Positions 25,301-28,300 of a stretch of DNA of 64,000 nucleotides are shown piece by piece; within the stretch, counting starts at the first letter, position 1; the number at the start of each line of letters is the position of its first letter. The DNA is taken from the NCBI RefSeq assembly GCF_057098645.1, contig NZ_CM169472.1; one strand, written 5' to 3'. Made by a program: the position numbers.

Positions 25301-28300
25301 AAAAATGCCATAGTAGAAAAATCATGAGTAAAAAGTCTTTATTAATTATCATCTTATTGATTTTTATGTCTTGGTGTTTGTGATGATTGATTTTCACTAG
25401 AATCTCTTACTTTGATTAAGATTTTTATTTTTTCTTATATTTAACGTTATTCAATGCGCGTCCTGCTACGTTTTATCGTGATTTAGAATTGTATGTAGCA
25501 TTAGCCATAAAATGATATCACTGGGAATATAATAAGGGGAATTATAATTTTGGGGGATAATTAGGCACTATCAAAAATCGCTCATTCCAGACTTAAATAC
25601 ACGTTTTCTCCTGTTTAGGTTATGGGCGAAAAATTCGATGAGGAGACGAGGTATAATTTCATTCACAACCCTATCACTATCTATTAATAAGCAAAAAACA
25701 ACGTTCTTTTGTGATACGACTAACTGAAAATCCAACCCTTCGGGCACGCTGCAGCGAGTTTGTGGGCACTAACATTCGTACAAGCTTCATCTGCCGGGCG
25801 AAACGTCAGCTAAATACCTTAAAATAATCGCTTTTTTCTCCGGATTTGATCTCCTCATTTTTACATTCCAACATCATTTTATAAACATTCCGCTTGTATT
25901 TTTCTTTAGCGTAATGATAATCGCTATCACTGCGATTTACTTTTCTTTGCATAGATTGACTCAGAAAAACGTTTAAGGGTGGGTGGCATGTTTGTTCCGT
26001 TTCTCATTATGTTGCGCGAAGGACTTGAAGCCGCGCTGATTGTCAGTTTGATTGCCAGCTATCTTAAGCGTACCCAGCGAGGCCGATGGATTGGTGTGAT
26101 GTGGATTGGCGTGTTGCTTGCCGCTGCGTTGTGCCTGGGCTTGGGTATCTTCATTAACGAAACCACCGGCGAATTTCCGCAAAAAGAGCAGGAACTGTTT
26201 GAAGGTATCGTGGCGGTGATCGCCGTGGTGATCCTTACCTGTATGGTTTTCTGGATGCGCAAAGTGTCGCGCAACGTCAAAGTGCAACTGGAACAGGCAG
26301 TCGATAGCGCATTGCAGCGTGGAAATCATCATGGCTGGGCGCTGGTGATGATGGTCTTTTTTGCCGTTGCAAGGGAAGGCCTGGAGTCGGTATTTTTCCT
26401 GCTGGCGGCATTTCAACAAGATGTCGGGATTTGGCCGCCGCTGGGTGCAATGCTCGGTCTTGCTACTGCCGTGGTGCTCGGCTTCCTGCTCTACTGGGGC
26501 GGTATTCGCCTCAATCTTGGTGCATTTTTTAAATGGACCAGCCTGTTTATTCTCTTCGTCGCCGCAGGGCTGGCAGCTGGTGCCATTCGCGCATTTCATG
26601 AAGCCGGATTGTGGAACCACTTTCAGGAAATCGCCTTTGATATGAGCGCGGTGCTCTCAACTCACTCGCTGTTCGGCACGCTAATGGAAGGTATTTTTGG
26701 TTATCAGGAAGCGCCGAGCGTCAGCGAAGTCGCCGTCTGGTTTATTTATCTCATCCCGGCGCTGGTGGCGTTTGCTCTGCCACCACGTGCAGGGGCGACA
26801 GCGTCTCGCTCCGCGTAGCAAATACGACGCAAACTCTTGCTTAGTTACAACATACTTTAAATGGATAGTCTCGTCATGACCATTAACTTCCGCCGTAACG
26901 CATTGCAGTTGAGCGTGGCTGCGCTGTTCTCTTCTGCTTTTATGGCTAACGCCGCTGATATTCCGCAAGTCAAAGTGACCGTGACGGATAAACAGTGCGA
27001 ACCGATGACCATTACGGTTAACGCCGGGAAAACACAGTTCATTATTCAGAACCATAGCCAGAAGGCGCTGGAGTGGGAGATCCTCAAAGGCGTGATGGTG
27101 GTGGAAGAGCGGGAAAATATCGCCCCTGGTTTTAGCCAGAAAATGACGGCGAATTTACAGCCTGGCGAATACGATATGACCTGCGGTCTGCTGACTAACC
27201 CGAAAGGGAAGTTGATTGTCAAAGGTGAGGCAACGGCGGATGCGGCGCAAAGTGATGCGCTGTTAAGTCTTGGTGGTGCAATTACTGCATATAAAGCGTA
27301 TGTCATGGCGGAAACCACACAGCTGGTGACCGACACCAAAGCCTTTACCGACGCGATTAAAGCAGGCGATATCGAAAAAGCGAAAGCACTGTATGCGCCG
27401 ACGCGCCAGCACTATGAGCGCATTGAACCGATTGCTGAACTGTTCTCCGATCTGGATGGCAGCATTGACGCCCGTGAAGATGATTACGAGCAAAAAGCCG
27501 CTGATCCAAAATTCACCGGTTTCCACAGTCTGGAAAAAGCATTGTTTGGCGACAACACCACCAAAGGAATGGATCAGTACGCTGAGCAGCTTTATACCGA
27601 TGTGGTCGATTTACAAAAACGCATCAGTGAACTGGCTTTCCCACCTTCAAAAGTGGTTGGCGGTGCAGCCGGACTGATTGAGGAAGTGGCGGCCAGCAAA
27701 ATCAGCGGTGAAGAAGATCGCTACAGCCACACTGATCTGTGGGATTTCCAGGCTAACGTTGAAGGCTCGCAGAAAATTGTCGATCTGCTGCGTCCACAAC
27801 TGCAAAAAGCCAACCCGGAACTGCTGGCAAAAGTCGATGCCAACTTTAAAAAGGTCGATACCATTCTGGCGAAATACCGTACTAAAGACGGTTTTGAAAC
27901 CTACGACAAATTGACCGATGCCGACCGGAACGCGCTGAAAGGGCCGATTACTGCGCTGGCGGAAGATCTGGCGCAACTTCGCGGTGTGCTGGGACTGGAT
28001 TAAGCGTTATGCAGTATGAAGATGAAAACGGCGTGAATGAACCGTCACGCCGACGTTTACTGAAAGGGATTGGTGCACTGGCGCTGGCGGGAAGTTGTCC
28101 GGTCGCTCATGCACAAAAAACGCAAAGTGCACCGGGTACGCTTTCACCGGATGCACGCAATGAGAAACAGCCGTTTTATGGTGAGCATCAGGCAGGGATC
28201 CTGACGCCACAACAGGCCGCAATGATGCTGGTGGCGTTTGATGTGCTTGCCAGCGATAAAGCCGATCTTGAGCGGTTGTTTCGCTTGTTGACTCAGCGTT

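Follow-up and report, generated by a model that had tools for sequence, protein, structure and literature searches.

The window, by which we mean the whole 64-kb stretch of DNA that was analyzed, contains a continuous reading frame for efeU on the forward strand, followed on the same strand by efeO and efeB. The features needed for the discussion below are the following:

25910–25928, forward strand: Fur-box-like operator, CGTAATGATAATCGCTATC, matching 15 of 19 positions of the consensus GATAATGATAATCATTATC
25926–25960, reverse strand: GTAAA-like pentamers in 10-bp phase (GTCAA-N5-GCAAA-N5-GTAAA-N5-GTGAT), a candidate CpxR site
25988–26818, forward strand: efeU, inner-membrane Ftr1-type iron permease of 276 aa, with two REGLE motifs, E72, and W85C (nucleotide 26242, G>T)
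26093 (efeU nucleotide 106), forward strand: a G that is kept here, from the alignment, and lost from K-12 MG1655 and laboratory strains related to it
26859–26865, forward strand: efeO Shine-Dalgarno region, AAATGGA here (26862, G>T) and AAAGGGA in 5416 of 5417 Escherichia coli genomes
26876–28003, forward strand: efeO, periplasmic protein of 375 aa with cupredoxin and M75 (imelysin-like) domains, intact, R218S (27527, C>A)
28009–29280, forward strand: efeB, Tat-exported DyP-type peroxidase/deferrochelatase of 423 aa, intact, identical to the O145 RM9872 protein

The efeU Gene and Its Product

efeU runs from ATG to TAG over 276 codons with zero internal stops. Mechanically, its open reading frame already opens at a GTG at 25979; the ATG at 25988 is the start annotated by RefSeq in the collinear record of E. 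coli O145 RM9872, and AAGGGTGGGTGG stands before it.

The family assignment follows from several profiles. Pfam PF03239 (FTR1) covers residues 1–275 of the protein over profile positions 1–283 of 284 (E 2.8e-88), and the NCBIfam equivalog for EfeU (NF041756) and TIGR00145 score 328.7 bits (cutoff 255) and 347.6 bits (cutoff 303.8), respectively. Both REGLE motifs claimed in the preliminary description were found, at aa 10–14 and 129–133, within hydrophobic segments 1 and 4. A search of 1.84 billion cluster representatives supplied 105 diverse full-length homologues, and in their alignment with the protein here, each motif shows near-invariant R, E, G, and second E residues; in the third segment, E72, A79, T84, M86, W89, and M90 are likewise conserved. 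Seven hydrophobic segments (1–24, 31–61, 67–95, 118–142, 146–175, 177–206, and 242–268) come from a 19-residue Kyte-Doolittle scan, which is crude and not a dedicated topology predictor. A search of the PDB by sequence found no structure of EfeU. By profile, motifs, and the seven segments, the gene is that of an EfeU/Ftr1 (OFeT) iron permease, with a putative transport activity.

EfeU is a seven-helix Ftr1-type permease whose iron path is lined by the two REGLE motifs, one in helix 1 and one in helix 4; its periplasmic partners are EfeO (cupredoxin and M75 domains) and EfeB (a heme DyP peroxidase). Both partner genes are full length here, are free of internal stops, and exceed their equivalog cutoffs. 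The metal-site motifs of EfeO retain their ligands as H217-S-L-E220, with the intervening R replaced by S, and the GEEDRY motif is present. The tripartite EfeUOB organization, efeU and then intact efeO and efeB, is thus in place.

Comparison with K-12

Aligned with efeU of K-12 MG1655, the gene shows a single gap, one G missing in K-12 at nucleotide 106 (GGATT-GTGTG). Owing to this loss, the K-12 reading frame ends after 36 codons. Here, that G stands at 26093 and the frame is open to codon 276. The preliminary description had proposed that efeU is continuous, unlike that of K-12, and that an alignment with the K-12 and O157 genes should be used to look for a frameshift; the alignment was run, and the frameshift did not appear. 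No other lesion of efeU was seen either on alignment with K-12, O145, and O157, so that the claim of a continuous frame holds.

Apart from the frameshift, the two genes are close. The K-12 MG1655 gene, listed as pseudogene b4490 (formerly ycdN, b1016/b1017), has 98% nucleotide identity to efeU here and shares an identical Fur box and start region. When it is repaired with the missing G, its protein differs from EfeU here at one residue only, W85C. Its putP–efeU spacer, on the other hand, measures 406 bp in place of 2.5 kb.

How widespread the K-12 lesion is was assessed with a 61-base probe carrying the deletion. Perfect matches were found in 368 of 5379 complete E. coli genomes, and all others differ from the probe. 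The 60 carriers listed among these 368 are laboratory strains, nearly all of them named K-12 derivatives (MG1655, DH5alpha, C600, J53, DH1). An intact efeU is therefore the rule in E. coli, to which the K-12 frameshift is the exception, which makes the finding an ordinary one. That EfeUOB is cryptic in K-12 through the efeU frameshift was already known. As for the idea that the intact gene marks the strain as non-K-12, this is true as a statement (it agrees with the G at nucleotide 106 and the O145/O157-type context), but with the K-12 allele in only 368 of the 5379 complete genomes, an intact efeU is nearly uninformative as a strain marker.

Closest Relatives and Flanking DNA

Positions 1–43916 of the window align without a gap to O145:H28 strain RM9872, at 99.96% identity with 18 substitutions over the 43.9 kb. 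We consider that the locus is probably an ordinary intact efeUOB, carried by an E. coli that is not K-12 and belongs to the O145:H28/O157:H7-like group. An intact efeUOB then confirms a wild-type O145/O157-like source with the usual acid-inducible, Fur-controlled iron route, and in itself it matters little.

A close known counterpart is EfeUOB (YcdNOB) of E. coli O157:H7, which has the same gene order efeU–efeO–efeB, the same Fur box, and the same flanks, including a 2.5-kb segment with a 447-aa reading frame between putP and efeU. EfeU is identical to the O157:H7/O145 protein (EFEU_ECO57) at 275 of 276 residues, the difference being W85C here. EfeO differs at three positions (I29, S218, and E237 here; V, R, and D in O157:H7) and EfeB at four, and the G>T at 26862 in the efeO Shine-Dalgarno region is absent from O157:H7.

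More distantly, EfeUOB resembles the yeast Ftr1p–Fet3p system (OFeT), which likewise combines a seven-segment permease bearing two R-E-x-L-E motifs and a conserved third-segment glutamate with a periplasmic/extracellular redox partner containing a cupredoxin domain. The partners differ: in bacteria these are EfeO, with a single cupredoxin domain and M75, and a heme DyP peroxidase, whereas yeast uses a multicopper oxidase. The bacterial permease, at about 276 aa, also lacks the long C-terminal tail of yeast Ftr1p.

Some features of the flanks deserve mention in their own right. The 2.5-kb segment (23315–25853), which takes the place of the 406-bp K-12 putP–efeU spacer, occurs in O157:H7 and O145 and is absent from K-12 and from strain 2018-166. 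Its reading frame (23462–24805, reverse strand) encodes 447 aa with three C-terminal repeats of about 62 aa (W..M ... AR[N/S]YL); a Pfam search of this product gave nothing significant, only a faint match to the effector domain PipB2_N (E 0.04). On the other side of the operon, the efeB–phoH gap of K-12 (8690–8773 of its locus) is about 100 bp longer than that of the window (29305–29322), and phoH is annotated in a long form of 354 aa (from 29525) in K-12 and in a short form of 262 aa (from 29801) in O145 and O157.

The Upstream Region

The Fur box upstream of efeU that had been proposed is indeed present: the 15/19 match lies 60–78 nt before the ATG and is the only site with at least 15 of 19 matches on either strand of the window, two others reaching 14. 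It is identical in K-12, O157:H7, O145, and strain 2018-166. At the sequence level, the promoter region thus has a putative 19-bp Fur operator. It overlaps a possible -10 hexamer, GATAAT (25916–25921), with TTGTAT 16 nt upstream. These two elements we infer to be the efeU promoter, a reading of our own, since a scan for the sigma-70 consensus called nothing upstream of efeU.

Between the Fur box and the start codon sits the run of phased pentamers. Its central pair (25936–25950, reverse strand) has one mismatch to the CpxR consensus GTAAA-N5-GTAAA and is flanked by phased matches with two mismatches each. Sites with at most one mismatch to that consensus occur six times in the window, so that a chance match is possible and the candidate CpxR site is only suggestive. 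Going upstream from the efeU ATG, K-12 remains homologous for 134 bp, up to the point where the 2.5 kb replace the shorter K-12 spacer. Conservation of this promoter-proximal stretch extends to every strain compared, O157:H7 differing from the window by one base.

Three Rare Changes in efeU and efeO

Over 13.3 kb around the operon, eight substitutions separate the window from O145 RM9872. Their direction was determined by comparison with K-12, O157:H7, and four draft genomes of very close relatives. Four of the eight are derived in the lineage of the window, and three of those four fall in efeU–efeO, none of the three being synonymous. Such a cluster of nonsynonymous or regulatory changes would fit relaxed selection.

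The first change, G>T at 26242, yields EfeU W85C. The exact W85C protein is found on 211 contigs in at least three nucleotide backgrounds; among 5393 complete E. coli genomes it occurs in one, that of strain 2018-166. An artifact can consequently be ruled out. Position 85 itself is variable across the 105 homologues (Y 35, W 31, G 13, S 9, T 7, F 5), in the midst of conserved neighbors. Since the position varies and the change recurs on several backgrounds with intact operons, W85C is judged to be probably tolerated, not inactivating. Nor is it associated with loss of efeO: in five of the six contexts shown, intact efeO and efeB lie alongside, and efeO::IS1 is seen in the one remaining, strain 2018-166. 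Spread by recombination is less likely than independent origin, with 16 other nucleotide differences between the 2018-166 efeU and efeU here, and 108 in the operon of a further carrier, L013. As for strain 2018-166 (NZ_CP075632.1), which carries EfeU W85C although it is unrelated, its efeO is split by IS1A (8665–10569 of its locus). This represents an inactivation of EfeUOB outside K-12 by another route.

The second change, C>A at 27527, replaces R218 of EfeO by S inside the GFHRLE (HxxE) motif, between H217 and E220. The H and E of this motif are the Site III metal ligands proposed in PMC9174327. R occupies position 218 in 131 of 134 enterobacterial cluster representatives and the corresponding position in three solved homologues, E. 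coli EfeO (7wgu), EfeM (7q1g), and Algp7 (3at7). The S218 allele is present in no complete E. coli genome. For the wider imelysin superfamily, PMC3143127 gives this position as an unspecified "x."

The third change, G>T at 26862, sits in the sole Shine-Dalgarno-like element preceding efeO, 14 nt ahead of its ATG. Its T is found in one of 5417 complete genomes (O121:H19 FWSEC0006) and is absent from the seven closest relatives compared. The predicted anti-Shine-Dalgarno pairing with the 3' end of 16S rRNA weakens from -5.1 to -3.1 kcal/mol, and a new in-frame ATG is created at 26861, 15 nt upstream of the normal efeO start.

The three changes each fall short of a null lesion, yet they could lower the activity of EfeUOB or the dosage of EfeO, and an intact efeUOB should not be equated with a fully active one. 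Together, W85C, R218S, and the Shine-Dalgarno mutation could show which residues of EfeU and EfeO matter.

Function and Alternative Readings

EfeUOB is functional in O157:H7 and cryptic in K-12 via the frameshift, according to work by Cao et al. (2007) and Grosse et al. (2006) that is cited in PMC7549933, PMC4746246, and PMC9174327. The same literature describes the system as acid-induced and regulated by CpxAR, with a requirement for EfeO and EfeB. In the published model, EfeO and EfeB capture and oxidize Fe2+ in the periplasm, after which the iron is handed to EfeU, by analogy with yeast Fet3p–Ftr1p. According to the literature, Fur-Fe2+ represses efeUOB at the promoter-overlapping operator under iron-replete conditions, and CpxAR modulates the operon, leading to its induction at low pH.

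With efeU, efeO, and efeB intact, the 134 bp upstream conserved, and EfeU one residue away from the O157:H7 protein, which is reported to be functional, EfeUOB is probably functional. In this strain, we regard expression of the system and iron transport through it as likely, at an efficiency that may be altered by W85C, R218S, and the weakened efeO ribosome-binding site. The preliminary description, which had predicted a functional system, thus made a fair inference from the intact genes; it was slightly overconfident about function and overlooked the three rare changes.

The most serious alternative is that the operon is intact on paper while being attenuated or in decay, so that R218S (perturbing the HxxE metal site), W85C (perturbing helix 3), and the 26862 G>T (reducing EfeO translation) would leave EfeUOB uptake weak or lost. 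In line with this, the three changes are all nonsynonymous or regulatory and strike positions at which E. coli varies little or not at all. They can also be put in order, with R218S shared by all four EfeO-matched relatives, W85C by a subset of them, and the Shine-Dalgarno change confined to the window. Four of the 18 single-nucleotide differences from O145 RM9872 lie in the 2 kb of efeU–efeO, where about 0.8 would be expected, although this count is post hoc and one of the four is ancestral here and derived in RM9872. In the neighboring pgaB, a frameshift and a nonsense codon have already produced a pseudogene, and one independent W85C strain (2018-166) has its efeO disrupted by IS1; the other five of the six W85C contexts shown, on the other hand, retain intact efeO and efeB. 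Moreover, none of the changes touches metal ligands H217 and E220 or either REGLE motif, position 85 of EfeU accepts G, S, and T in homologues, the GGA core of the efeO Shine-Dalgarno element survives, and efeUOB is without any stop, frameshift, or insertion sequence. On balance, attenuation or decay strikes us as unlikely. A stronger version, in which EfeUOB of the O145:H28-related lineage was remodeled or degraded stepwise (R218S, then W85C, then the Shine-Dalgarno hit) and the homoplasic W85C reflects selection on helix 3 instead of drift, appears quite improbable.

It is highly improbable, too, that the T at 26862 is a sequencing or assembly error, in which case only two lineage-level amino acid changes would remain and no difference would separate the window from relatives L007, L008, and L016 in the stretches compared. 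The base is, admittedly, the sole difference from each of these (over 13.1, 9.9, and 8.8 kb, respectively). However, the same G>T occurs in the complete genome of O121:H19 FWSEC0006, which makes it a viable, natural allele, and single private differences between close isolates are to be expected.

We likewise give very little credence to a functional operon whose main role is to obtain iron from heme (with EfeB as deferrochelatase) or Fe3+ after peroxide-driven oxidation: the literature cited in PMC9174327 describes peroxidase and heme-deferrochelation roles of EfeB and NCBIfam names the protein "deferrochelatase/peroxidase," but the sequence does not discriminate between these roles, and published work characterizes the E. 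coli system as a transporter of Fe2+ that is induced by acid (Cao et al. 2007, via PMC7549933, PMC4746246, and PMC9174327).

Other Observations in the Window

Two further genes carry, or should carry, lesions. pgaB (32372–34389, reverse strand), encoding the PGA deacetylase, has the frameshift annotated in O145 RM9872, about 394 codons in, together with a TAG nonsense codon from a C>T at 32736 that is common only to the closest relatives. With pgaB a pseudogene, export of the PGA biofilm polysaccharide is probably defective. rutA (15364–16454, reverse strand) is annotated as frameshifted in O145 RM9872, and because the alignment to RM9872 is gap-free, the window should share this lesion.

Toward its end, the window diverges from O145 RM9872. 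A stretch of 1449 bp inside a fimbrial usher gene (43917–45365) is absent from that strain, and beyond 47066 (to 64000) the window departs from RM9872, where an IS3 and then the ure island follow. The region 47066–64000 matches strains Z1323HEC0422 and Z1323HEC0399 at 99.9% and encodes an usher, a filamentous-hemagglutinin/ShlB two-partner secretion system, and an acyl-carrier-protein synthase.

Finally, two RNA elements reach the Rfam gathering score. These are the nucleoid-associated RNA/REP-type element naRNA4 (5091–5169, reverse strand; 60.4 bits) and the antisense RNA Ysr251 (30391–30584, reverse strand; 186 bits), the latter located inside the 3' end of phoH.
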